Positions 1 through 22,883 of a stretch of DNA of 24,000 bases are shown one piece after another (the first letter of the stretch is position 1; each line of letters begins with the position of its first letter). The DNA is taken from assembly GCA_964434965.1 (NCBI GenBank), contig CAYSWX010000023.1, positions 1-24,000 of the forward strand, written 5' to 3'. A model generated the notes under the pieces. It was not told the DNA's origin, did not search any database, and saw nothing but the letters and a program-made list of their open reading frames with translations. The translations under genes and the position numbers were made by a program. The stretch comes from an uncultured Methanosarcinales archaeon. Its GTDB lineage: Archaea > Halobacteriota > Methanosarcinia > Methanosarcinales > Methanosarcinaceae.

Positions 1-399
1 CATTGCTATCCTCTTATAAGATATTTTCATCTCAGATAAAGTTTGCTTAAAGCTGCTTTGCCTGGAAGCTACAGGAATAATCCGAAGCAGCCGGACAAAA
101 GATCCTGGTAATAGACCCGTATTCAGGTACTGGTCTTCACGTGTTTTTGTTCCAGGTATTTCTGCTAATTATTGATCTAATATGCAGATTTACTGTTTAT
201 TGATATTGATTTCAGGTTAGATTGACAATCTATATTTATTTAATTATTGGTCTCAATCGTTATCAAGCTAACCATTATATTTATTTCCCAGTTCGATAAT
301 TTCATAATTTCTACAGGTGCAATTAACCTGATGTGGCTTTTATACAGATTCAGGACTTGAGCAGAATCTCCAGTTCAAAAACATATCTCAACTCAAAAT

Positions 400-1857
400 T
401 TAACCTGATTTATATTTTCCGTTTTCTCCGGCAAACGGGATTTTTTCACCTGTTAAAGGTAATGTGAATGCGAAGGTGCTGCCTTTTCCCACCTCACTTT
501 CCATCCATATTTTCCCGCCGTGCAGTTCCACAAGTTTCTGGACAATAGTAAGGCCAAGTCCGCTTCCTTTGTACGTGTGTGTCTCCGTGTTTTCTATCTG
601 GCTAAAAGGCTTAAATAGCTTCTTCTGGTCCTCTGGCGATATCCCAATACCGCTATCCTTTACGGAGATTTCGGTAAAGTCCCCTATAATTTTGGCCCTT
701 ATGGTCACTGAACCTTCACAGGGCGTGAACTTTATTGCGTTGCTAATAAGGTTATAGAGGATCTCTTTGAATTTTTCCAGGTCTGCGTGGAGAACCCTTA
801 AATTTGGGTCAAGATCTTTATCAAGATTGATATTCTTTTTTGATGCCAGAGGAAGGAGTGTTGTCACAACTTCACAAATGGACTCCGGTACAGAGATCTC
901 TGTGTATCGCAGCTCCGTCTTTCCTGCTTCGATCCTCGATAGGTCAAGGAGATTATTAATTAGGGACAGCTGGTGTTTTCCGTTCACGGAAATATTAGTA
1001 ATATACTTTATTTGCTTTTCATTCAAAGGTCCGATTACCTGCTCAAGCAAAAAATCCGAATACCCAATAATAGAGTTAAGCGGTGTCCTCAATTCATGGC
1101 TCACGTTAGCCAGAAACTTGGACTTGGTGTTGTTTGCCTCTTCAGCCGCCTTTTTGGCTCGGACCATCATCTCTTCTGCCCTTATCTGCTCTGTTATATC
1201 AATCCCCATGCCTCCGTATAATGTAATTCCTTCACCCAGATTGATAGGAAACCTTATGGTGCGGTAGAAAAGTTCGTTTCCCTCCAGGTCTACAAGAGAT
1301 TCTGTCCTGGTGATGCTGTCTTTTTCTTCAGATACCGCATCCCTGATCCACTCCTCTTTCCTGAAGTGTTCCTTCAGATAATTATTCGAATATACAATAA
1401 GTCCCCTGTCATCTTTTATGAATGCGGTCGCGGGCAAATTGTCCATAAATGTGGTAAATTGCTTTTTGCTCTGCTGAAGTTTTTTGGAGTATTTTTTAAG
1501 TTCTCTATTCGTCTGCTCCAGTTCTTCAGCATATCTCTGAAGTTCTTTCCGGCTTTTTTCTGAAGCTTCGATCCATTCTCTGAAGGCAAGGCCATATGCC
1601 ATCATTATTTCCATCAGAGGAGTAGATAGATAACGGATAGACTCGAGAAGTTTTGTGTCTGGATAAGTTTCTGAAAGGCAAGCTATTGCGTCCTCATGGA
1701 TCTCTGCAATGTCCTCAGGGGGTATGTTTTCCTGGACCATCTCCCGCCCGAGTTCACCTATTTCAAAAAGGTACTTTTCATCGGGGGAATCAACATAATT
1801 TTTTAGAAGGACATTATATCTTTGTTTGAACTTTTGAATTGGCATAGGGCAAATCAT
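400..1857 (-). CDS. Sensor histidine kinase with RsbU-N-like (RsbT-docking) N-terminal domain, coiled coil, PAS-like segment, HisKA and HATPase_c
   Basis: 485-aa ORF. The N-terminus ([10 protein letters not shown]...[14 protein letters not shown]...[10 protein letters not shown]) aligns by eye with the N-terminal domain of Bacillus RsbU. Coiled coil [26 protein letters not shown]-box [19 protein letters not shown]-box [12 protein letters not shown]-boxes DSGIGI and GSGLGL. ATGA start/stop overlap (1854-1857) with the upstream phosphatase gene. Confidence 0.9.
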
Positions 1858-2423
1858 CCTTTATATATTAGAATTGCAGCATCGTCTGTTTCTTTTGCAT
1901 AGTCTCTAAGTATTCGATTTGCCAGTTTTTGCACGTCCATGCAGAAGGACTCTTCATAACTGGAAACTTCGAGGCTTTCTGAGATGCCGTCAGTCCACAT
2001 AAGCACAAGATCGCCATCAGTCAGGTCTATAGTATTTATATTTAATTTCCGGTAACCTCCCCCAATGATACCCCAATCGCTACTCAAATTTATTTTTTTT
2101 CTACCCCATATTGCTACATTGATATTTCCTATCCCTCCATGAGTCAGTGTAGCATTTTTTTTATCCACAATGACTATGCTCATTGCCGTCCCCCTTGTGT
2201 ATTTTATCCCCCGGTCACACTTCTCAAATATATGGGGCAATGGTTCACAAAGGTTACGGGATACGCAGTCGATTGCTGCTATTGCAGCCTTTTCAGCTTC
2301 AATTCCGTGCCCAAGACCATCAACCATACATAGTATGATACTATCCTCGTTTTCCCACCATCTACACTGATCCCCACAATAAGGGTCATTTAAGAAAGAA
2401 TGAGTTGCAGTACTAATATTCAT
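1854..2423 (-). CDS. PP2C/SpoIIE-type serine phosphatase, RsbX-like
   Basis: 189-aa ORF, the size of RsbX. Motifs CGDQ...[15 protein letters not shown]...MWTDGISE are typical of the SpoIIE/PP2C fold. Sits directly downstream of the RsbR/S/T-like genes. Confidence 0.8.
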
Positions 2424-2469
2424 GTTTCATCCTATTCAGGCCATATAATTCTACCTGATGGTCTGCCTG

Positions 2470-2580
2470 TTATTCCAGATCCTTGACAACTGGCTCTGGT
2501 TCTGGACATTTCTTTCCATAGGATCCATGCTGATCTTTCCCGCAGTTCAGCTCAACAATTAAATGGCTTCTCTTTTCCAT
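2470..2580 (-). CDS. Possible 36-aa small ORF in the rsbT-like/rsbX-like spacer
   Basis: My own translation of the minus strand: MEKRSHLIVELNCGKDQHGSYGKKCPEPEPVVKDLE, then a stop. It is below the ORF-track size cutoff. I recognise no homology and see no clear SD. Confidence 0.2.
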   Translation of the reverse strand: MEKRSHLIVELNCGKDQHGSYGKKCPEPEPVVKDLE

Positions 2581-2588
2581 AATGAATT

Positions 2589-2612
2589 TTTTATGTTGGG
2601 TTTTATGTTGGG
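2589..2612. repeat. Perfect 12-nt tandem duplication TTTTATGTTGGG x2
   Basis: Read directly: 2589-2600 and 2601-2612 are identical and are followed by TTTTTT. Lies just 3' of the rsbT-like stop on the minus-strand transcript. Confidence 0.8.
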
Positions 2613-2631
2613 TTTTTTGCGCCACCTCAAA

Positions 2632-3030
2632 TTATTTCCGGCTCCTTTTGATTTCCATGGTAATTTTTGTATATCCTGGCTCTGATGCTATGTCAAAATT
2701 GTTTACAAGCCTTTTAGCTCCCGGAAGTCCTGCTCCCAGCCCGTTTCCCGTAGTGAACCCATCTTCCATGGCCAGGTTAAGATCTGCAATCCCTGGGCCG
2801 TAGTCTTCTACAACTACTTTAATAGCCATTTCCTTTTCATCCTGTTCATTATGAATGGAGCAGTTCCCTTCTCCTGCATATTTAAGAACATTCCGGGCCA
2901 GTTCGGAGATGGCAGTTGCCATACGTGTCTGATCTGCCGAACCAAACCCCATCTCCTTCATAATATCCCTTGCTGTCTGCCTTGCAAACAGGAGATCACT
3001 CTCGGTTTTAATCGGTATTTTCTTATTCAT
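2632..3030 (-). CDS. RsbT-like serine protein kinase (anti-sigma-regulatory-factor type HATPase)
   Basis: 132 aa, collinear by eye with B. subtilis RsbT: AISELARNVLKYAGEG, EDYGPGI, MEDGFTTGNGLGAGLPGAKRL. Confidence 0.85.
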   Translation of the reverse strand: MNKKIPIKTESDLLFARQTARDIMKEMGFGSADQTRMATAISELARNVLKYAGEGNCSIHNEQDEKEMAIKVVVEDYGPGIADLNLAMEDGFTTGNGLGAGLPGAKRLVNNFDIASEPGYTKITMEIKRSRK

Positions 3031-3196
3031 TGATTATTCCCTCTTAGGTTATCCCCTCAGTAATCGGGTAGTTTCCATAATTTCCCCTGTCCATTATTCT
3101 ATCTGTTACTTTCTATCACTGCACTATCCGGGTGCTCTGGTACAGCTAACTATGGAATACATATCCTGAGGTAAGAGAAGTACAGTCTCCAACAGT

Positions 3197-3577
3197 TCAA
3201 CTTTGTAACGAGGTATGACTTCCTTTTTTTGAGTGGAGTATTTTATCAAGCCCCTTACCAAGGTTAAGTGCCGTTTGCACGCCTATGAGTTCTCGTCCCA
3301 TTTCAACAAGGGTTAGAGCAACCATAGGCTGCATTCCGCAGAGTACTACTTCTGTCCCCATAATTCGTGCCATATTTGCCGTCTCATTGATAACTCTCGC
3401 CATAAAAGAATCGACTATTTCCATACCCGTTATATCAATGAGGACCCCTATAGCTTCGGTTTTTTCAAGCATTTTCAGCATTTGAGACTGGAATTCAAGT
3501 ACCTCGTTGTCTGTAAGGTCCCCTGGTATCGAAGACAGCAAAACATCATTTACTTTCAGTATTGGAATCATTCCCAT
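3197..3577 (-). CDS. RsbS-like single STAS-domain protein
   Basis: 126 aa. IPILKV...VLIDITGMEIVDSFMARV...VVLCGMQPMVALTLVEMG matches RsbS by eye. Ser57 in the DSF motif corresponds to the phospho-acceptor Ser59 of B. subtilis RsbS. TAATG overlap with the upstream gene. Confidence 0.8.
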   Translation of the reverse strand: MGMIPILKVNDVLLSSIPGDLTDNEVLEFQSQMLKMLEKTEAIGVLIDITGMEIVDSFMARVINETANMARIMGTEVVLCGMQPMVALTLVEMGRELIGVQTALNLGKGLDKILHSKKGSHTSLQS

Positions 3578-4383
3578 TACTCCTCACATGATACCACTTT
3601 CATTCCCATCAGGCTGATGGCTTTTGAGATCCCTGTTTTCAGTGAACCACAGGTGGTGATATTGCTCAGGTCTATTCCGAGAGTTACCAGAGTCTGTGAG
3701 ACCTCAGGGCTGAAACCGGTGAGAATCGTCTTTGCCCCAAGCATTTTTGCTGCATTTACTGCCTTGATTATATGCCTTGCAACTGCAGTGTCTACTACCG
3801 GCACTCCTGTAAGGTCCAGAATCGCCAGTTCAGCTTCATTTTCCACAATTGAGTTTAGCAGGTTTTCCATAATATGCTGTGCACGTGCTGTATCGATGGC
3901 TCCTACCAGAGGCAGCAACAGGATCCCATCCCATATTTTGATCACAGGTGTTGCAAGCTCCAGAATTGTCTGGCTCTGTACACGAAGGTCATTTTCCATC
4001 TTCACTCTGTTAGTAATATCTGCAATATATTCAAGCCCTCCAACAATGTTTCCATCCTCATCTTTTAAAGGCACAGCCGTTACCTCTATGTTGATCGTTT
4101 CTCCATGGTCCGAAATTTCATAACGACCTGTATATTTTTTGTCGTTGTCTATTGCTTGTTTGATTCCGCATGTGGATGCACTTACGCACCTTGATTCAAG
4201 AACTTTGTAACATTTTTTTCCTTTAACTTCCTCAAATTTTCTCCCAAATAAATCGCAACCTGCGGGGTTGATAAACAAAATATTAAAATCCTTATCCACA
4301 ATCATAATAGGAATTGGAATTGATTCAAGAAGAGCGTTTTCCATATCAAATGACCCTATGTTATATTTGCCTGTAGCGTTCAT
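3577..4383 (-). CDS. RsbR-like stressosome sensor: N-terminal PAS domain plus C-terminal STAS
   Basis: 268 aa. PAS-like N-terminus (IMIVDKDFNILFINPAGCDLFGRKFEEVKGK...). The C-terminus ILDLTGVPVVDTAVARHIIKAVNAAKMLGAKTILTGFSPEVSQTLVTLGIDL matches the RsbR STAS domain, including the VVDT threonine. SD-like GGGGA upstream. Confidence 0.8.
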   Translation of the reverse strand: MNATGKYNIGSFDMENALLESIPIPIMIVDKDFNILFINPAGCDLFGRKFEEVKGKKCYKVLESRCVSASTCGIKQAIDNDKKYTGRYEISDHGETINIEVTAVPLKDEDGNIVGGLEYIADITNRVKMENDLRVQSQTILELATPVIKIWDGILLLPLVGAIDTARAQHIMENLLNSIVENEAELAILDLTGVPVVDTAVARHIIKAVNAAKMLGAKTILTGFSPEVSQTLVTLGIDLSNITTCGSLKTGISKAISLMGMKVVSCEE

Positions 4384-4497
4384 TTTTCGTCCCCTGTTAC
4401 ATGATTTCTTGCCTTAAAGACCAATGGTCTCTGGCATCTATAATTGGTGAAACTAAAACCAATTATAATAGATTTTCAATTTTTGTTGTATTCTGTG

Positions 4498-4514
4498 TAA
4501 AGAAATGATATGAT
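4498..4514. repeat. 17-nt motif TAAAGAAATGATATGAT, copy 1 (the exact second copy is at 14714-14730)
   Basis: Exact 17-mer seen in two separate intergenic regions. Each copy lies about 95-130 nt upstream of a minus-strand start codon (4383 and 14620), and each is followed by TAAA(A)TGGT. Confidence 0.6.
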
Positions 4515-4814
4515 TAAATGGTAAAAACTTTATTATAATATTCATATTCTTTGCCGAGATTCTATATAACTTTTTTTATACTATTAATCGAACTTATTCA
4601 TGCCGAGATTTAAAATCAAGGATAAAATTCTCTAAAAATGGAGAAATGATTAGATTCAGAACCAGGTTTTCAAAAGAGTAGGGGACATTCTGGATCTGGG
4701 AAACAACATAAATACGATCATACTTATCAGTAATCTATTGATTGAATACAAATTCTGATGGACAAATAGACTTATACCCCATTAATCTTAAAAAAAGAGG
4801 TAGGTGACCCCTGG

Positions 4815-5117
4815 ATGCACAAAACACTCAATCTTGATGATTTAATCGCCAAAAAGACGAAAGAGAATGTTGAAAAAGACCCCGAAATGGGATATGAAGA
4901 GCTCTACGACTTGATTATCCCCCCCGGAACGGTTGTATCCATTATCTACGATATCGTAGAAGAATTTGGGCTTGAACCCATAACGCGGAAGATGCCTTTT
5001 AGTATTGCAAACAGTGAAGAAAGGGAAGTTCTTGTCCTTCGCGGTCCTCTTGAAAAGGTTCAGGCTGCAGAAGAATTCCTCTATAAGGAAATGAAGGACT
5101 GGATCGAAAATCCATAA
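4815..5117 (+). CDS. Hypothetical protein (100 aa, acidic)
   Basis: The ORF has SD-like GAGGTAGGTGA about 8 nt upstream and natural-looking composition. The overlapping antisense ORF (4842-5198) is Phe-rich and looks like a shadow frame. No family recognised. Confidence 0.55.
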   Translation: MHKTLNLDDLIAKKTKENVEKDPEMGYEELYDLIIPPGTVVSIIYDIVEEFGLEPITRKMPFSIANSEEREVLVLRGPLEKVQAAEEFLYKEMKDWIENP

Positions 5118-5242
5118 GATCCGCTGGTCTGGAAAAAGGGGATAATAGCAATAGGAGCAGGTGCTGGATAAGTGAAATAACAACTTTTCAGCAAACAAAT
5201 ATTTTTTCTTGAAATAAGTAAAAATATGAGGAAAGGTCCCGG

Positions 5243-6223
5243 TTATTCGGAACCTATACCTGTAATACTGTCTTTTGAAAAGTCAAAAACGGTTACCCTG
5301 TCTGTTTTCTCGTACATATCGAGCTTTGCTCCCTCTTCAATTATTCCTATAACGGAAGCTGTAAGCCCTGCCTTTTCAAATACATTTACACATTCTTCGG
5401 CTTTTTCCGGGGCTGCGGTAAATACGTAACCTGTTCCGGGGTGCACTTTCAGCCACTGCTCAAAGTCCACACCTTCAGGTCTTGGGACTTTTTCAAGGTC
5501 CACCAAGGCTCCTACCCTGCTCGTCTCGCAAAGCATTCCAAGCGTTCCTATGAGCCCAGGGTTGCTGATATCCTTGCCGGCGGTAGCAAGCTTTTTCTGT
5601 GCTATTTCCTGGGTTACAAGGTAGCTTTCCCTCAGCACTGCAGGTTCTTTAAAGGATGTAGTATCCCAGCTGTAAGGGGAATTCGGACCGATTCTTCCGT
5701 CCATATCATAGGCTGCAATTATCAGGTCTCCGGGGCTTGCAGTATCACTTCGGATTACACAGTCCTTTTTTACAATCCCTATAATAGCAACGGAAAGGGA
5801 ATTATACTTAGTATCAGGATGGACGTGCCCTCCAACCACAGGAACTCCGAATTTTCTTACTCCTTCAGCCAGTCCTTCCATCAGTTCCCTGCAGGCTTTT
5901 GGAGAATTTGAAGAGGCGATATCCACCATGGCAAGGGGTTTTCCGCCCATGGCTGCAATATCATTTATATTCACAACAACAGCCCCATAACCTGCCCACC
6001 AGGGGCTTGCGTCCAGCAGCCTCCCCCATATGCCATCTGCTGCAAAGAGGATAACGTCATCTCCCCCAATATCAATCACAGCAGCATCATCTCCGAAATC
6101 CACGATAGCGTTCCCGTATTCCGGGCGGACAGCTTCAAAGATGGAGACTATGTCCTCTATCTCTTTTTTTCGGGTGACTCCTTCAAAATTCCTTATACTT
6201 TCTGCTAACTGTTCCAGGTTCAA
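5243..6223 (-). CDS. AIR-synthase-related protein (PurM/ThiL/HypE superfamily), possibly methanogenesis marker protein 2
   Basis: 326 aa with the N-terminal FGDDAAVIDIGG motif and a later VVGGHV segment, typical of the PurM-like ATP-binding fold. The marker-2 assignment is from memory only. Confidence 0.75.
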   Translation of the reverse strand: MNLEQLAESIRNFEGVTRKKEIEDIVSIFEAVRPEYGNAIVDFGDDAAVIDIGGDDVILFAADGIWGRLLDASPWWAGYGAVVVNINDIAAMGGKPLAMVDIASSNSPKACRELMEGLAEGVRKFGVPVVGGHVHPDTKYNSLSVAIIGIVKKDCVIRSDTASPGDLIIAAYDMDGRIGPNSPYSWDTTSFKEPAVLRESYLVTQEIAQKKLATAGKDISNPGLIGTLGMLCETSRVGALVDLEKVPRPEGVDFEQWLKVHPGTGYVFTAAPEKAEECVNVFEKAGLTASVIGIIEEGAKLDMYEKTDRVTVFDFSKDSITGIGSE

Positions 6224-6274
6224 TCAAAAGCTCCTGTATGTTTTTTAGTTGTATCAAGTAGTTTAACAAATAAT

Positions 6275-6316
6275 GGTAAGACCAGATTGCGGTAAGACCG
6301 AATTAATGGTAAGGTC
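6275..6316. repeat. Three direct repeats GGTAAGACC / GGTAAGACC / GGTAAGGTC spaced 16-17 nt apart
   Basis: Read directly at 6275-6283, 6291-6299 and 6308-6316. The first and third are preceded by TAAT. Lies 52-93 nt upstream of the minus-strand start at 6223. Confidence 0.6.
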
Positions 6317-6667
6317 ACAGTAAACAGATGATAACTGGTGTCAAAGTTGAAATAAGTTATTAAATCTAATTGCAAGGTTCTGAGAGGTTAATAATAAACT
6401 TATTGCAGGTCAATGCAAGATATGATATTTATTATGAGCTTGGAGGCAATTGACATATTTATAGGCTCGATTTACTCATCTTTCCTTATAGCCGGGCAAT
6501 ATGGGACGAAATGATATACGTAATTAAGGTTATACTTTATCTGTTTTTCTTTGTTTTTGGGGGACGGAAGCGACAGCTTTTTATTAAATTATTATCTCCT
6601 AATATGCCAACCTTATATATTTTTCGACTTTATAAAAGTCTCCATTATAAAATAAGGAGTCAAAAAC

Positions 6668-6844
6668 ATGGTAGCAAAAATCGATGCCGATGCCTGCACA
6701 GGCTGTGGAACCTGTATAGATGAATGCCCTGCAGCTGCAATCTCCCTCAGTGATGATGATATTGCAGTTGTAGACGAAAACGAGTGCCTTGACTGCGGTG
6801 CATGCGAAGATGCCTGCCCGAACGGGGCAATCACCCTCGAGTAA
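6668..6844 (+). CDS. 2x[4Fe-4S] ferredoxin (58 aa)
   Basis: My own translation: [58 protein letters not shown]. It has two CxxCxxCxxxCP motifs, and AAGGAG lies 9 nt upstream of the ATG. It is absent from the ORF track (under 60 aa), which shows only antisense shadow ORFs here. Confidence 0.85.
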
Positions 6845-6867
6845 CACTTTAAAAGTAAGTCAGAGAA

Positions 6868-6893
6868 GCGGAGTTCTTGAACTCCGCCTTTTT
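6868..6893 (+). terminator. Hairpin plus T-tract downstream of the ferredoxin gene
   Basis: GCGGAGTT (6868-6875), loop CTTG, AACTCCGC (6880-6887), followed by CTTTTT. Confidence 0.45.
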
Positions 6894-6944
6894 GGCTCAG
6901 GGTTCATATCTTTTTTAACCCGGAGCCAGGATTAATAAAGCTAT

Positions 6945-7976
6945 TCAGTCCTCTTCTTTTCCGTTCTTTTCCAGGATCTCTCTTGCTTTTTCCATCTCTT
7001 CCTTCGTATGGATCTTTATCATCTTTCTGCGTTCTTCACTCATCTGCGACATGTCCTGGGCAAGGAGGCCGTAAGCATCAGCCCTGCACTGCCTGCAGTG
7101 GCGCATTTGCATAACATAAGGTTCGCAGGCTTCCTGGACTGCTTTTCTTTCTTCTGCTGTAGGAGGCTCTATGTCTGCAAAGGCTCCCTGGTTGATCAGG
7201 GGCATGACATTCATAATGTAAACCCCAAGTTCGTTGAGTTTTCTGGCAATCTCAATTACGTGCTTATCATTTATTCCAGGGACAAGCACAGTGTTAACCT
7301 TTATAACCAGACCTGCATCAATAGCAGCCTTAATCCCTTCAAGCTGGTTTTTGACCTGAATTTCTGCAGCTTCGACTCCCCTGTAGACCTTCCCGTGATA
7401 AACTATGTGGTCCACTATTTTTGCCTGAATTTCGGGGTCGATAGCGTTTACCGTTACAGTCAGCGTGGAAACTCCAACCCTCAGAATGTCCTGCAGCTTT
7501 TCGGGAAGCAAGAGTCCGTTTGTACTCATGCAGAGAGTAAGCTCCGGAAACTCTTTTTTTATCAGCTCAAATGTCTCAAAGGTCGCATCATTAGCCAGAG
7601 GGTCACCTGGACCTGCAATCCCGACAACTTTGATGAACGGATAATCTGCCACTATCTGCCTTGTCTTCTCAAGAGCTTCCTGCGGGCTCAGGACCTTACT
7701 GGTAACCCCGGGCCTGCTCTCGTTTACACAGTCAAATTCACGGACGCAGAAATTGCACTGGATATTGCATTTCGGAGCCACAGCCAGGTGAATTCTTCCG
7801 TATTTATGCTGCGCTTTCTTATCATAACAGGGGTGCTCGGCAATCTTTCTAAGGAGTTCCTCTCCAGATGCGGGGCTATTATCGGTGTTGTTTACAGATT
7901 GGTTTTTTTCTGGCAAATTATTCTCCTCCGTTCGGAACTTAAAAGTGAAGTAAGATCTCAGTAAAAGGGATTTCAA
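6945..7976 (-). CDS. nifB: Radical SAM FeMo-cofactor biosynthesis protein NifB (short archaeal form)
   Basis: HPCYDKKAQHKYGRIHLAVAPKCNIQCNFCVREFDCVNESRPGV and the C-terminal MRHCRQCRADAYGLL are hallmark NifB motifs. 343 aa with no NifX-like extension. Confidence 0.85.
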   Translation of the reverse strand: MKSLLLRSYFTFKFRTEENNLPEKNQSVNNTDNSPASGEELLRKIAEHPCYDKKAQHKYGRIHLAVAPKCNIQCNFCVREFDCVNESRPGVTSKVLSPQEALEKTRQIVADYPFIKVVGIAGPGDPLANDATFETFELIKKEFPELTLCMSTNGLLLPEKLQDILRVGVSTLTVTVNAIDPEIQAKIVDHIVYHGKVYRGVEAAEIQVKNQLEGIKAAIDAGLVIKVNTVLVPGINDKHVIEIARKLNELGVYIMNVMPLINQGAFADIEPPTAEERKAVQEACEPYVMQMRHCRQCRADAYGLLAQDMSQMSEERRKMIKIHTKEEMEKAREILEKNGKEED

Positions 7977-8460: not shown

Positions 8461-9228
8461 TTATAAGCAACCCCACATCCTGTGGGTCTGTGGAATAATT
8501 CGCGTGTCGGTCAGCTCAAGCAGGTTTTTCTGCAGCTTCAGGAGAGTCTGCACGGATGCCTGCGTAAACCCCGGAGCCCTTGCTGCACTGCCCAGAGGCG
8601 TTTCAGGCTGAAGAACTATACAGGATACATAGGGTGCTATTGCTTCTGCAGCCATTGTTACGGTATCCGTGTTTGTTTCCCTGCCTATTACAATCTTGCA
8701 AAAGCAGTCTCTTGAATTACTTTTTCTCAGGAGCTTGAAGCACTCAATCGTATTTTCCACATGTGTTTCCCTGTTTTCAGGGCAGATGTCCTCAATAGCC
8801 TCTGGTAGTTTAAAATCCCCTGAAACATATGCGATATTTTCACGCAGCTTTCTTGCCTGCTCAGGCAGGGTCATATTGGATTCCAGGTACAGGGGCACGG
8901 AAACGTCAAGTTTTTCTATGAAATCCGCATGCAGAAGAGGCTCTCCTCCTGTCAGGGAAATGGAATGGAGCTTTTTGAAAGGATGCAGCATGGATTCCAG
9001 CTTTTCGATACTTACAGGGTTTGGAACCTTTTCAAAAACTCCACTGCCCTCTTCTCTTTCGTAGTCGCAGGTTCCAGGATTTCCAAAATCCGTGTCACAG
9101 TAATTGCAATTAAGGTTGCAGCCTGAAAACCGGACAAAAGCCTGCCTCACACCAACATACGGGCCTTCTCCCTGCACGGAACAGAAGACCTCTCTTATAT
9201 GAGCAGATTCATGGTTTTGAGAGGACAT
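8461..9228 (-). CDS. queE: 7-carboxy-7-deazaguanine synthase (radical SAM)
   Basis: [32 protein letters not shown] is the characteristic QueE N-terminus with a Cx3CxxC-type cluster motif. Confidence 0.9.
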
Positions 9229-9789
9229 TTACACTACTCCGAGAGGCCGTGACTTCCTGAGGTCCTTTTCAATATCCTCAAATTCCCTTACATAAGCATC
9301 TCCGATTCCCTTCATTAGCCGTACAATACTTTCATCGTCTTCTATTCCGGCTTCTTTCAGGTTTCCGTATACTTCATGTGTGACATTCATGCCGAAGTGG
9401 ATCTTCTGGGAAACCGCCGAAGTGCTGGCAATCGATACGGTCAGCTTCTTTCCCTTAAAAAATAAATCATCTCCTTCCCTTGTGGTATGGATTCCAAGCC
9501 CTGCAAGGTATTCCCTTACAATTGCAGTAAAAAGGCGCTGGCGTGCATAGATCAGTTTAAGGTCAGTAGAATCGAAGTGTTCTATAATGAAATTCAACAT
9601 ATCTTCGGACCAGATCGACTCGTTTGCCTTCCGGTCTTCTAGGTCAATCATGTGTTCTATTTTTACGTCACATGCACCTCTAAAAACTATAATGGAATCT
9701 TCCTGCACTCCAAAGCTGTTATAAGCCCAGAGCGAAGAAATCTGGCTCCCGTCGTAATCAAGTTTTTCGGGTAAAATAATACACTTCAT
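9229..9789 (-). CDS. Uncharacterised 186-aa protein inside the preQ0 operon (possibly the archaeal DUF366/COG2029 family)
   Basis: Intact ORF whose stop abuts the queE start with no gap (9229 vs 9228). I recognise no catalytic motif. The family name is recalled from memory, not verified. Confidence 0.6.
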   Translation of the reverse strand: MKCIILPEKLDYDGSQISSLWAYNSFGVQEDSIIVFRGACDVKIEHMIDLEDRKANESIWSEDMLNFIIEHFDSTDLKLIYARQRLFTAIVREYLAGLGIHTTREGDDLFFKGKKLTVSIASTSAVSQKIHFGMNVTHEVYGNLKEAGIEDDESIVRLMKGIGDAYVREFEDIEKDLRKSRPLGVV

Positions 9790-9846
9790 GGAACTCTCTC
9801 TATCTCTCTATTATTGTTTTTAATCTCTCTAACGGATTATTCGGGT

Positions 9847-10542
9847 TTAAACCCCAGGCTTTTCCAGAAGCGGGTCTTTTGAACCTGCGTTTTTGAATGC
9901 CCTTTCCCTGCGCACGCAGCTTTCACACTCTCCGCAGGGGATTTCCCCGCCGTGATAGCAGCTCCAGCTGTATTCAAGTGGAGCATTTGCTTCAAGAGCC
10001 CTTTTAACAATTTCAGTTTTCCCCATTTCTATAAGAGGAGCCAGTACCCGCACCCCGTTCTGTGTGGAGTAAGAAAAAGCATGGTCCATTGCCTTTACAT
10101 AATCAAGTGAATTGTCAGGGAAGGTCCCGGCTTCTTCTCCATTAAAGCCCACCACTATGTAATCACAGCCCCTGCTTTCAGCAAAGCTCCCTGCAATGTT
10201 TAACATAACCCCGTTTCTGTTTGGGACCCAGACAGCCTTTGCAGAATTTTCGGTAATTACGGCAGGCGCAGCCTCATCAATATCTTCAAGGGATAGAGAA
10301 GGGACTTCCTCACTCCTGTTTACAAGGGATGTATGTGTTATTTTCCCAAGCCAGTCCAGCTTGATTATCCTGTGCTCTATTCCAAAGTATTCGCAGACCT
10401 TTCTGGAATACTCTATTTCCCGCTGCCCGGCTCTCTGCCCATAATCAAAAGTAATTGCCATATCAATTTCCAGGCTTTCGGCTGCGATCGCAAGCGCTGC
10501 GACGGAATCAAGCCCGCTGCTCATGAGGGTTATAGCTTTCAT
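9847..10542 (-). CDS. queC: 7-cyano-7-deazaguanine (preQ0) synthase
   Basis: N-terminal PP-loop [14 protein letters not shown] and the C-terminal zinc motif [18 protein letters not shown]. Confidence 0.9.
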
Positions 10543-20950: not shown

Positions 20951-22003
20951 TCAAAACCTGAATTTTTCCCTGTTCCTTTCCATAATCTTCACAAGGGAAA
21001 GCATAACAGGCACTTCCACAAGCACTCCCACAACTGTTGCTAGAGCAGCTCCTGATTCCATCCCGAATAGAATTAAGGCTACTGCCACTGCCAGTTCAAA
21101 GAAATTGCTGGCGCCGATAAAGGTTGAAGGTGCAGCTTCCATGTAAGGGATTTTCAGGTATTTTGCTCCTGCATAACCGATCCAGAAGATCAGGTAAGTC
21201 TGAATCACCAGAGGGATTGCGATCAGGAGAATGTGCAGGGGATAATTTATGATGTTTTTTCCCTGGAATATAAAAATCAGGACCAGAGTAATTAAGAGCC
21301 CGGCAGGAGTGATCCACTGTGTTTTTTGAATGAGTTTGTTTTCAAACCAGTCAATGCCTTTTTTCCTTATCACCACCTGTCTTGTAAGCACAGCAAGGCC
21401 GAGGGGAATTGCAACATAAAAAAGGACAGAAACGAAGATTGTCATAAGAGGGACAGGAAAGTCAGTTGTGACTCCGAGGAGAAACTTTCCTAGTGGGGCA
21501 AAAAGGACCAGGATGATAAGGTCATTTACTGAGACCTGAATCAGAGCATAATTAATATTCGCTCTTGCAAGATAAGTCCAGACGAGTACCATAGCCGTAC
21601 AGGGGGCAATCCCAAGCAGGATCATGCCTGCGATATACTGAGCCTGAAGGTCAGCATTGATCAGGGATTCAAAGAGCACGCGCATAAAGAGCCATGCAAT
21701 AAATGCCATTGTAAAGGGCTTGATTACCCAGTTTATGACGAGAGTCAGAAGGAGGGGCTTTAGATTTGCTTCAACGTTCAGAATTTCTTCAAAGTTGATT
21801 TTAAGCATGATAGGGTACATCATGATCAGGAGCACAACAGCTACGGGAATTGAAACATTTGCAATCTCAATCCCTCCAAGAGTGTCCGCAAAACCTGGAA
21901 AAATATAGCCTATTGCAGTCCCGAGTATTATACAGACCGCAACCCAGATAGAGAGATATTTACTGAAGAAATCTAGTTCCCTTTCTTCCTCCTCTTCAGG
22001 CAT
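20951..22003 (-). CDS. acr3: ACR3-family arsenite efflux carrier
   Basis: 350 aa and polytopic. MYPIMLKI, LLGIAPCTAMVLVW (the conserved transport Cys), GASNFFELAVAVA and VGVLVEVPVML are characteristic ACR3 motifs. Confidence 0.9.
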   Translation of the reverse strand: MPEEEEERELDFFSKYLSIWVAVCIILGTAIGYIFPGFADTLGGIEIANVSIPVAVVLLIMMYPIMLKINFEEILNVEANLKPLLLTLVINWVIKPFTMAFIAWLFMRVLFESLINADLQAQYIAGMILLGIAPCTAMVLVWTYLARANINYALIQVSVNDLIILVLFAPLGKFLLGVTTDFPVPLMTIFVSVLFYVAIPLGLAVLTRQVVIRKKGIDWFENKLIQKTQWITPAGLLITLVLIFIFQGKNIINYPLHILLIAIPLVIQTYLIFWIGYAGAKYLKIPYMEAAPSTFIGASNFFELAVAVALILFGMESGAALATVVGVLVEVPVMLSLVKIMERNREKFRF

Positions 22004-22883
22004 ATTCCTCCCCTTCGTCCCACTCTTCTCCGTCGAACTCTTTGCTTGCAGGGATGATCATCACAGGCTTTGCGGTTTTCCGGAGTACGTTTTCTGCCGT
22101 ACTCCCGAGCAGTATGTCCATTAAATCTCCTTTCCCACGGGTGGTCAGCATAATCAGGGTGATATCTTCTATACTGGCAAGCTTAACAATTTCATCGGAT
22201 GGGATGCCCTCAACGACAAGGCACTGGCTTTTTATTCCTTCAACCCGTTCCTTTATTTTCCTGAGCTTTTCTTTTGCCTCTTCTCTCTGTTCATCCAGAA
22301 GGTCCATATCTTTTATATCATCTATCACATGGATGAAAAGAACCTCTTTTATGACCTCTTTAAGCTCCTGAAGCTGTTCGACCGCTTTCATTGACCCTTT
22401 CGAAAAATCCAGAGGCATAAGGATCCGCGAGAAAGTTGCCCTGCACGCCTTCTCATAAACTTCTTTTCCTTCTTTCAGAGCATCATACTTTTCGACCAGC
22501 AGCATTTTTTTTGAACTGCGTGCTATATATTCCGTAGTCCTTCCGAGAAATTTCCCTTTTATAAATCCTTCAGTGGTGGCTCCCATTATTATAGCATCAA
22601 CATCTTTTCTGTCGGCTATTTCCGAAATTGTCCTCTTTACATCTCCTACTATTACCAGGGGTTCGGTTTCAAGTTCAAGTTCGCTTGCAAAGCCTGTGTA
22701 GTCCTCGATTCTTTTCTCTGCATTTCGTTCAAACATAGGGGTAAGCCCCTGGCTTTTATGTATGTCCACCACATGCAGCAAAATAACCTTCTTCAAGCCT
22801 GCGTTTTTAAGTTCCCCTATGCAGCCAAGCAAATCTTCCGTTTCGATAGAAAAATCCACAGGAACGAGTACTGTGCTTATCAT
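21996..22883 (-). CDS. Tandem universal stress protein (2x UspA domain)
   Basis: Two Usp-like halves begin VLVPVDFS... and ILMPLDFS..., and each ends with a G-x2-G-x9-GS-like ATP motif (TTRGKGDLMDILLGSTAENVLR). Its last 8 nt overlap the acr3 start. Confidence 0.85.
   Translation of the reverse strand: MISTVLVPVDFSIETEDLLGCIGELKNAGLKKVILLHVVDIHKSQGLTPMFERNAEKRIEDYTGFASELELETEPLVIVGDVKRTISEIADRKDVDAIIMGATTEGFIKGKFLGRTTEYIARSSKKMLLVEKYDALKEGKEVYEKACRATFSRILMPLDFSKGSMKAVEQLQELKEVIKEVLFIHVIDDIKDMDLLDEQREEAKEKLRKIKERVEGIKSQCLVVEGIPSDEIVKLASIEDITLIMLTTRGKGDLMDILLGSTAENVLRKTAKPVMIIPASKEFDGEEWDEGEEYA

Follow-up and report, generated by a model that had tools for sequence, protein, structure and literature searches.

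What does a stressosome-type gene set do in an archaeon, and to which output is it connected? This question is raised by a locus in the first 24,000 nucleotides of contig CAYSWX010000023.1 (GenBank assembly GCA_964434965.1; hereafter referred to as the window). On the minus strand, between positions 4383 and 400, five co-directional open reading frames (ORFs) follow each other in the order RsbR-like (R), RsbS-like (S), RsbT-like (T), RsbX-like (X) and histidine kinase (Table 1). A preliminary description, made from the letters of the DNA, had proposed this gene set. The ORFs bear it out, a hidden Markov model search (STAS, RsbT-type HATPase, SpoIIE, RsbU_N, HisKA) confirmed all of the proposed domains, and matches to solved stressosome proteins uphold the same assignments. 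As argued below, the five genes probably encode a functional minimal (single-RsbR) stressosome-type partner-switching module in which a histidine kinase acts as the output.

The host is a Methanosarcina, and thus an archaeon as first supposed, since mcrA is found in its genome (3.98 Mb, 98% complete; its 50-kb contig C23 opens with the window), the operon flanks are syntenic with 57 other Methanosarcina genomes, and near homologues belong to Methanosarcina sp. 2.H.A.1B.4, KYL-1 and M. horonobensis HB-1. The module is present in a single copy in this genome, where RsbR has no paralogue.

The Pfam assignments for all five proteins lie above the curated cut-offs. The RsbR-like protein carries PAS_4 at residues 19-127 (E 2.9e-18) and STAS at residues 146-240 (E 1.1e-16). 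In its AlphaFold2 (AF2) model (predicted local distance difference test, pLDDT, 82), a PAS domain (26-122) is followed by a helix (124-144) and the STAS domain (148-258), and the top Foldseek matches are full-length YtvA and the Listeria innocua stressosome RsbR, the latter with a root-mean-square deviation (rmsd) of 1.9 Å on the STAS part. The STAS half also matches Listeria RsbR (7B0U) and the Vibrio stressosome RsbR by sequence (E 1e-33), and it is 42-45% identical to the RsbR chains of the solved Listeria and Vibrio stressosomes (42% to 7B0U). Alignment without gaps equates Thr199 (VVDT) with Listeria Thr209 and Thr165 (IDT), a site absent from the preliminary description, with Listeria Thr175. 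The protein hence has the make-up of an RsbR, an N-terminal sensor and a C-terminal STAS domain with two conserved Thr acceptors. The RsbS-like protein is a STAS protein (E 3.3e-10) that matches Listeria RsbS 6QCM (E 4e-27), B. subtilis RsbS 6JHK and Moorella MtS 2VY9 in a range of E 4e-27 to 2e-25. Its Ser57 (VDSF) corresponds, again without gaps, to Listeria Ser56, which is read as Ala in entry 9O4R; as expected of an RsbS, it is a single-STAS antagonist with the conserved Ser acceptor. The acceptors were placed through the Listeria RsbS and RsbR alignments, in which the PDB entries read Ala for Ser/Thr at two of the sites, and these readings fit engineered acceptor-site variants. The conservation claimed at the outset for DSF Ser57 in the RsbS-like protein and for VVDT in the RsbR-like protein is upheld by these alignments.

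The RsbT-like protein matches HATPase_c (E 1.6e-11) and HATPase_c_2 (E 4.7e-9), and its N-box ELARN (43-47), G1 box DYGPG (76-80) and G2 box GNGLG (95-99) are intact. Homologues in named bacteria that are annotated as RsbT are 55-61% identical, while a search by sequence for a solved RsbT structure gave no match at E <= 0.001. It is, like RsbT, a GHKL serine kinase of ~130 amino acids (aa) encoded after rsbS. The RsbX-like protein has a SpoIIE match (E 8.1e-7); its nearest solved relatives are the Moorella stressosome phosphatase MtX (3ZT9, E 2.7e-19) and B. subtilis RsbX (3W40, E 4.9e-10). The metal-binding motifs CGD (16-18), DGLGHG (35-40), TDG (144-146) and TDD (179-181) are present in what is a single-domain PP2C feedback phosphatase of the RsbX type.

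The fifth protein connects the module to a two-component output. Its N-terminus had been aligned by eye with the N-domain of RsbU, a resemblance now borne out by a Pfam RsbU_N match of 54.8 bits (cut-off 25.5, E 1.1e-14) and by matches to the B. subtilis RsbU N-domain structures (2J70/1W53, E 5.5e-9). The model gives this part as a helical bundle with pLDDT ~90, and a whole-genome scan finds a single copy of RsbU_N in the host, at the coordinates of the kinase. HisKA (245-312) and HATPase_c (359-469) make up the C-terminal part and have the hallmarks of a HisKA-type kinase, the H-box His together with the N, G1, F and G2 boxes (G2 GSGLGL). Between the coiled coil and DHp lies a PAS-like insert of ~115 residues, which comprises five strands and short helices in the AF2 secondary structure (pLDDT 47-75) and for which the Pfam PAS and Cache matches are sub-threshold only.

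Table 1. Features of the stressosome-type operon and its surroundings, in their order along the minus strand.
Feature	Coordinates	Strand	Remarks
Candidate archaeal BRE (transcription factor B recognition element)/TATA element	4563..4580	-	AAAAAAAGTTATATA; ~180 nucleotides (nt) upstream of rsbR; candidate only
rsbR-like	4383..3577	-	268 aa; PAS sensor, J-helix, STAS; acceptors Thr165 and Thr199
Cysteine-bearing PAS loop	4168..4212	-	Cys58, Cys66, Cys72; orthologues C-x8-C-x4-C, often with His before the second Cys
rsbS-like	3577..3197	-	126 aa from Met1; single STAS; Ser57; conserved start Met3 at 3571
rsbS-rsbT gap	3031..3196	-	166 bp; poorly conserved save for the ribosome-binding region; no oligo-T run
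rsbT-like GHKL serine kinase	3030..2632	-	132 aa; HATPase_c and HATPase_c_2
rsbT-rsbX gap	2424..2631	-	208 bp; poorly conserved; site of T2 in Methanolobus and bacterial cassettes
rsbX-like PP2C phosphatase	2423..1854	-	189 aa; SpoIIE Pfam match
Histidine kinase	1857..400	-	485 aa from Met1; probable start Met5 at 1845
Domain order of the kinase			RsbU_N, coiled coil, PAS-like insert, HisKA, HATPase_c
RsbU_N of the kinase	1585..1824	-	Residues 12-91; PF08673; predicted RsbT docking site
PAS-like insert	1198..1428	-	~Residues 144-220; absent from Methanolobus cassette kinases and one likely bacterial kinase
Kinase core	451..1125	-	HisKA H-box SHELRTP (His254); HATPase_c with N, G1, F and G2 boxes
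First oligo-T run past the kinase stop	377..381	-	19 nt beyond the stop; candidate archaeal terminator

The closest archaeal relative of the operon is a Methanolobus cassette (R-S-T-T2-X-RsbU_N kinase), which has the same PAS cysteine triad and in which identity is 55-59% for RsbR, 67-70% for RsbS, 65-69% for RsbT and ~50% for both RsbX and RsbU_N. T2 is a second GHKL gene that sits between rsbT and rsbX in Methanolobus and in several related cassettes, including that of a Deltaproteobacteria metagenome-assembled genome (MAG). A T2 relic was sought in the 208-bp gaps of four Methanosarcina species (tblastn, word size 2), where nothing scored better than E 0.2, and the Methanosarcina lineage appears to have lost the gene that Methanolobus keeps. 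The Methanolobus kinase is short (~340 aa) and lacks the insert. Whereas RsbU_N is about half identical between the two genera, the kinase cores share only 26-29% identity. The Methanosarcina core instead shares 50-60% identity with at least 11 paralogues encoded by its own genome, rising to 70-72% in the DHp region. With RsbU_N near Methanolobus and the core near the resident paralogues, the kinase is chimeric, and the RsbU_N adaptor seems to have been kept while the body was exchanged for a resident type.

Leads to where the kinase would send its phosphoryl group come from paralogous kinases. The preliminary description had noted that no response regulator is encoded in the visible operon. 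This holds over a larger region, as no receiver domain was found on the 50-kb contig C23 or on its 2.5-kb neighbour C110, and the kinase, with no linked cognate response regulator, is an orphan like many archaeal kinases. The genome has 24 receiver (REC) domains. In the regions C48:1419-3444 and C1:260751-263755, paralogous kinases with DHp regions 61-72% identical to that of the stressosome kinase adjoin stand-alone receiver genes. The receivers beside paralogous kinases are the only leads to a partner, and the one at C48:1419-1754, which adjoins the kinase with the closest DHp (72%, C48:3139-3384), is a candidate.

With the identities of the genes established, a mechanism can be modelled on that of Bacillus and Listeria. 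RsbR and RsbS would form, through their STAS domains, a scaffold that holds RsbT. A signal at the Cys-bearing PAS domain of RsbR would lead RsbT to phosphorylate RsbS at Ser57 and RsbR at Thr165 and Thr199, and to leave the scaffold. The free RsbT would then dock on RsbU_N of the kinase and alter autophosphorylation at His254, and a receiver protein whose gene lies at another genomic locus would take over the phosphoryl group. RsbX would dephosphorylate RsbS and RsbR and thereby reset the system.

Parts of this scheme would also work without a large complex. The Rsb-like proteins might be a small SpoIIAA/SpoIIAB-like partner-switching set with the same signal logic and no megadalton hub, an explanation that we consider rather unlikely. 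The genome encodes one RsbR and no paralogue of it, a pseudo-icosahedral assembly of ~1.5-1.8 MDa is not readable from sequence, and the PAS-J-helix-STAS layout resembles that of YtvA. In Bacillus, YtvA requires other RsbR proteins for its entry into the complex. However, the STAS domain is as close to the RsbR of the solved Listeria and Vibrio stressosomes as the 42-45% identity given above, with an rmsd of ~2 Å, and the Vibrio vulnificus module, which likewise has a single RsbR, does form a stressosome (PMC9237108).

The docking step draws on B. subtilis, in which the binding of RsbT to RsbU_N passes on the signal, and RsbU_N on downstream kinases has been read likewise (PMC9237108). The kinase might instead escape control by RsbT docking, either because RsbT phosphorylates it transiently or because it is governed mainly by the PAS-like insert and RsbU_N is no more than a dimerisation helix bundle. 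The Methanosarcina kinase did gain a PAS-like domain that Methanolobus cassette kinases and one likely bacterial kinase lack. However, the Vibrio kinase has no RsbU_N while the match in Methanosarcina is strong, and RsbU_N kept its similarity to Methanolobus while the rest was exchanged, which argues that the adaptor is the selected link to the module. Moreover, relatives join RsbU_N to many different outputs next to RsbRSTX genes. Taken together, these points make control without docking improbable.

The distribution of RsbU_N bears on the same step. Together with the operon it is found in four of the 59 Methanosarcina species genomes, at one and the same site in each, and in a phylum-wide sample of 401 genomes it is found in 16. 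Every RsbU_N protein of this Halobacteriota sample with a resolved C-terminal part is a histidine kinase; a histidine-kinase domain was found in 17 of the 21 archaeal RsbU_N proteins scanned, and the remaining four are cut by the locus end or have PAS/GAF only. Most archaeal RsbU_N loci adjoin RsbR-S-T(-T2)-X genes, and within the short loci fetched RsbT and/or RsbX was found at 18 of 25, the signature expected of a link between RsbT and RsbU_N. Beside Rsb genes, RsbU_N relatives are joined to simple and hybrid kinases, HisKA_3 kinases, a GerE-type DNA-binding domain, HD-GYP and GGDEF, and because the domain is fused to so many outputs in this setting, RsbU_N fits the role of a portable RsbT receiver. 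A contig scan with the whole kinase as query returned 79 loci, none with Rsb genes, in a search that was dominated by the catalytic core. Six archaeal RsbU_N kinases, at L117 (G234), L103, L110, L116, L119 and L120, have no Rsb genes within the short loci fetched; some of these are PAS-rich and cut at the locus end. In another relative (L126, a 1.1-Mb contig, 2823-7723), two tandem copies of the R-S-T triplet, each with a STAS-only RsbR of 148 aa, precede T2, RsbX and an RsbU_N kinase of the Methanosarcina type that has the PAS-like insert.

As to the signal, alignments show a cysteine triad (C58, C66/67, C72) that is common to Methanosarcina, Methanolobus and bacterial RsbR orthologues. The RsbR of the window has Cys66/Val67, while nearly all orthologues have Cys67, many with His or Cys at position 66; one other Methanosarcina-like RsbR sequence (P0123) reads Cys66/Gly67. 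The triad was present in none of the three matching solved PAS sequences. In the phmmer alignment to the best match, the TyrR PAS structure, the Cys segment is an insertion, and the BvgS PAS domain has different residues there. Within the PAS model, confidence is lowest in the Cys loop (pLDDT 58). The sensor shares its PAS-J-helix-STAS layout with YtvA, the LOV-STAS blue-light RsbR paralogue of B. subtilis, but it is not a LOV protein: the NCBIfam model YtvA_fam scores 100 bits against a cut-off of 250, and the PAS part alone has no significant match to YtvA or LOV sequences. It is a reasonable idea that the triad may serve as a metal, cluster or disulfide redox sensor. A fuller version is put forward tentatively, as a possibility that we hold to be more doubtful than not: the triad would either bind a metal or Fe-S centre or make up a redox-active disulfide, the module would act as the oxygen/redox alarm in a strict anaerobe, and the output would have been re-plugged into the Methanosarcina orphan-receiver network through the graft of RsbU_N on a resident kinase core.

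The arrangement of the genes fits a single transcription unit. The preliminary description had taken TAATG and ATGA as signs of translational coupling. Both strings are present (3579-3575 and 1857-1854, respectively) and the spacing is tight, but the overlaps probably miss the true start codons. The three orthologous operons agree on Met3 as the start of RsbS and on Met5 as that of the kinase, the kinase is called as a 481-aa protein in the database, and Shine-Dalgarno-like spacing suits Met3 and Met5 better. On these grounds, the true R-S and X-kinase junctions are probably spacers of 5 nt and 8 nt, respectively, which is still tight. The rsbS-rsbT and rsbT-rsbX gaps, on which the preliminary description is silent, are not tight; in species G057 and Methanolobus the former is missing, and S and T abut or overlap. 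A search for oligo-T runs in the two gaps found none, and from 4383 to 400 the operon strand has runs of at least five T within the coding region of the kinase only. The common strand, the two tight junctions, a gene order kept in four species and gaps free of oligo-T are all consistent with co-transcription of the five genes. Upstream of rsbR, the A/T-rich block of the candidate BRE/TATA element is partially conserved in three of four species. A scan for sigma-70 promoters, a consensus that does not apply to an archaeon, returned 14 sites against 13 expected. In positions 1-5200 of the window, no Rfam family reached or came close to its gathering score. In the rsbT-rsbX gap, a 12-bp tandem duplication (CCCAACATAAAA twice, ~2589-2612) is not kept in the three orthologous operons; a 36-codon ORF in the same gap (2580-2470) was rejected as a gene, as it is not conserved in these operons either.

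Purifying selection acts on all five genes. Among the four Methanosarcina species the operons are syntenic with 74-83% nucleotide identity, and the ratio of nonsynonymous to synonymous substitution rates (dN/dS) stays within 0.06-0.27 for each of the five genes in each of the six species pairs. That the operon is a decaying remnant that is being lost, as in sister species, and has no present function is therefore highly improbable: although it occurs in few genomes of the genus, the site is empty in G011, a frameshifted rsbR fragment is all that G047 has, T2 is gone and Cys67 is replaced, the five frames are open with every catalytic and acceptor motif intact and with the dN/dS values just given.

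The patchy distribution can be explained, at least in part, by loss, which is documented by empty sites and a relic. At the empty sites, the flanking genes are adjacent with a gap of ~600 bp in G013, 373 bp in G011, which is the closest sampled relative, and 1.7 kb in the 5,751,492-bp genome G041. The complete 4.14-Mb Methanosarcina genome G047 retains no more of rsbR than the PAS part, codons 1-144, broken over three frames (L130, G047:C1:3507500-3512500, ~2940-3430), and a deletion between these flanking genes has removed the remainder of the operon. Recent acquisition is rejected, as operon GC (42.0%) equals that of the genome (41.4%) and the synonymous divergence (dS) of the operon is similar to that of the flanks (0.53-1.21). 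Collectively, the shared site, the empty sites, the G047 relic and the match in dS and GC indicate that the operon is old in the genus, was inherited at one site and has been lost repeatedly.

On a longer time scale, a transfer between domains is well supported, in line with the early suggestion of a horizontal acquisition and with the phylogeny that was proposed as its test. In the RsbT tree, Methanosarcina and Methanolobus form one group, which falls in a clade (support 99/97) with five named bacterial RsbTs, from Acidobacteriota, Syntrophobacteraceae, Magnetovibrio and Ectothiorhodospira, while the RsbTs of four other Halobacteriota families fall outside this clade. The approximately unbiased (AU) test rejects a single archaeal RsbT clade at p = 0.006, for a group set after the first tree had been seen, on 136 columns and with only five named bacterial rows, a limit that counts against the reading given here. 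In addition, the Deltaproteobacteria MAG has the same cassette with the same Cys-bearing type of PAS sensor. The tree, the AU test and this shared cassette together suggest a passage of the cassette between bacteria and Methanosarcinaceae. As the system is so widespread in bacteria, we infer that it moved from bacteria to archaea.

How does the archaeal module compare with the systems that have been described? The stressosome of Bacillus subtilis and Listeria monocytogenes has the same four protein types, the same acceptor Ser/Thr positions and an RsbX-type feedback phosphatase, and its output, RsbU-RsbV-RsbW-SigB, likewise begins with RsbU_N, which RsbT binds in Bacillus. In contrast, the Methanosarcina locus, in an archaeal host, has no sigma factor, RsbV or RsbW, and its RsbU_N heads a histidine kinase instead of a PP2C phosphatase; it has a single RsbR with a PAS sensor in place of a non-haem globin, and rsbX comes directly after rsbT. 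Another such system is the minimal stressosome of Vibrio vulnificus (PMC9237108, PMC10014275), which is also an RSTX module with one RsbR, a two-component output that replaces SigB and a patchy occurrence in the genus. There, rsbR-S-T-X is followed by the two-component proteins VvD1 and VvD2. Unlike the Methanosarcina kinase, VvD1 lacks RsbU_N, the Vibrio RsbR senses oxygen by a haem globin where that of Methanosarcina has a Cys-bearing PAS domain, and Vibrio has a linked response regulator where the Methanosarcina locus has none. RSTX modules of alpha-, beta- and gamma-Proteobacteria (Pane-Farre et al. 2005, Heinz et al. 2022) have the same architecture of RSTX followed by RsbU_N-HisKA-HATPase, and we see the same RSTX and RsbU_N cassette in loci that either bear a bacterial name or are probably bacterial. 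Compared with the proteobacterial modules, Methanosarcina lacks T2 and has RsbU_N on a resident archaeal-type kinase core with a PAS-like insert. It has been reported that rsbRSTX occurs in diverse bacteria "and even some archaeal species", and that some signalling proteins downstream of RSTX, kinases included, carry RsbU_N, which was read as the RsbT target (Heinz et al. 2022, PMC9237108). An archaeal two-component census and an archaeal phosphorylation review do not mention the system, and a full-text literature search found no experimental study of the archaeal copy. The literature thus agrees with the preliminary description, according to which RsbRST modules with alternative outputs are known in bacteria and the archaeal version is experimentally uncharacterised.

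Several further points weigh against the reading of the locus as a functional minimal stressosome-type module with a kinase output. Transcription, complex formation, phosphorylation and the contact between RsbT and the kinase are what we infer from the genes, and co-transcription across the 166-bp and 208-bp gaps is likewise a deduction. In the Vibrio stressosome, binding of RsbT to the kinase could not be shown, although that kinase has no RsbU_N (PMC9237108). No receiver gene is linked to the Methanosarcina kinase, whose own PAS-like domain could permit independent regulation. Finally, the RsbR of the window has Cys66 in place of the Cys67 that is conserved elsewhere.

The surroundings of the operon can be described briefly. 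Positions 1-55 of the window, which begins at a contig end, are identical to the last 55 bases of the 2.5-kb contig C110 (L009), which probably continues the locus past the window start. C110 encodes proteins of 113 aa and 162 aa, and the same 113-aa gene comes after the operon in M. horonobensis. Further into the window, on the minus strand, a cluster of genes for a radical-SAM protein, DUF366 and QueC (8461-10542; 7-deazaguanine/archaeosine-type pathway) is unrelated to the operon, and there is an overlap between an SBF-family transporter gene and the end of a tandem universal-stress-protein (Usp) gene (20951-22883).

There is little new in kind here, as archaeal modules are already in the literature, and the interest of the locus is moderate and lies mainly in the experimental opportunity. 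Stressosomes have been studied experimentally in few bacteria only, and the signals that activate them are mostly unclear. The archaeal copy would represent a hub that operates without any sigma factor, in a compact form of five genes with one sensor, one output and no paralogues, and the conserved cysteine motif of its sensor is a concrete candidate for the site at which a signal, redox state or a metal, is perceived. In model Methanosarcina with genetic tools, e.g. M. acetivorans, the operon is naturally missing and its empty site can be identified, so that these species could serve as clean recipient backgrounds.

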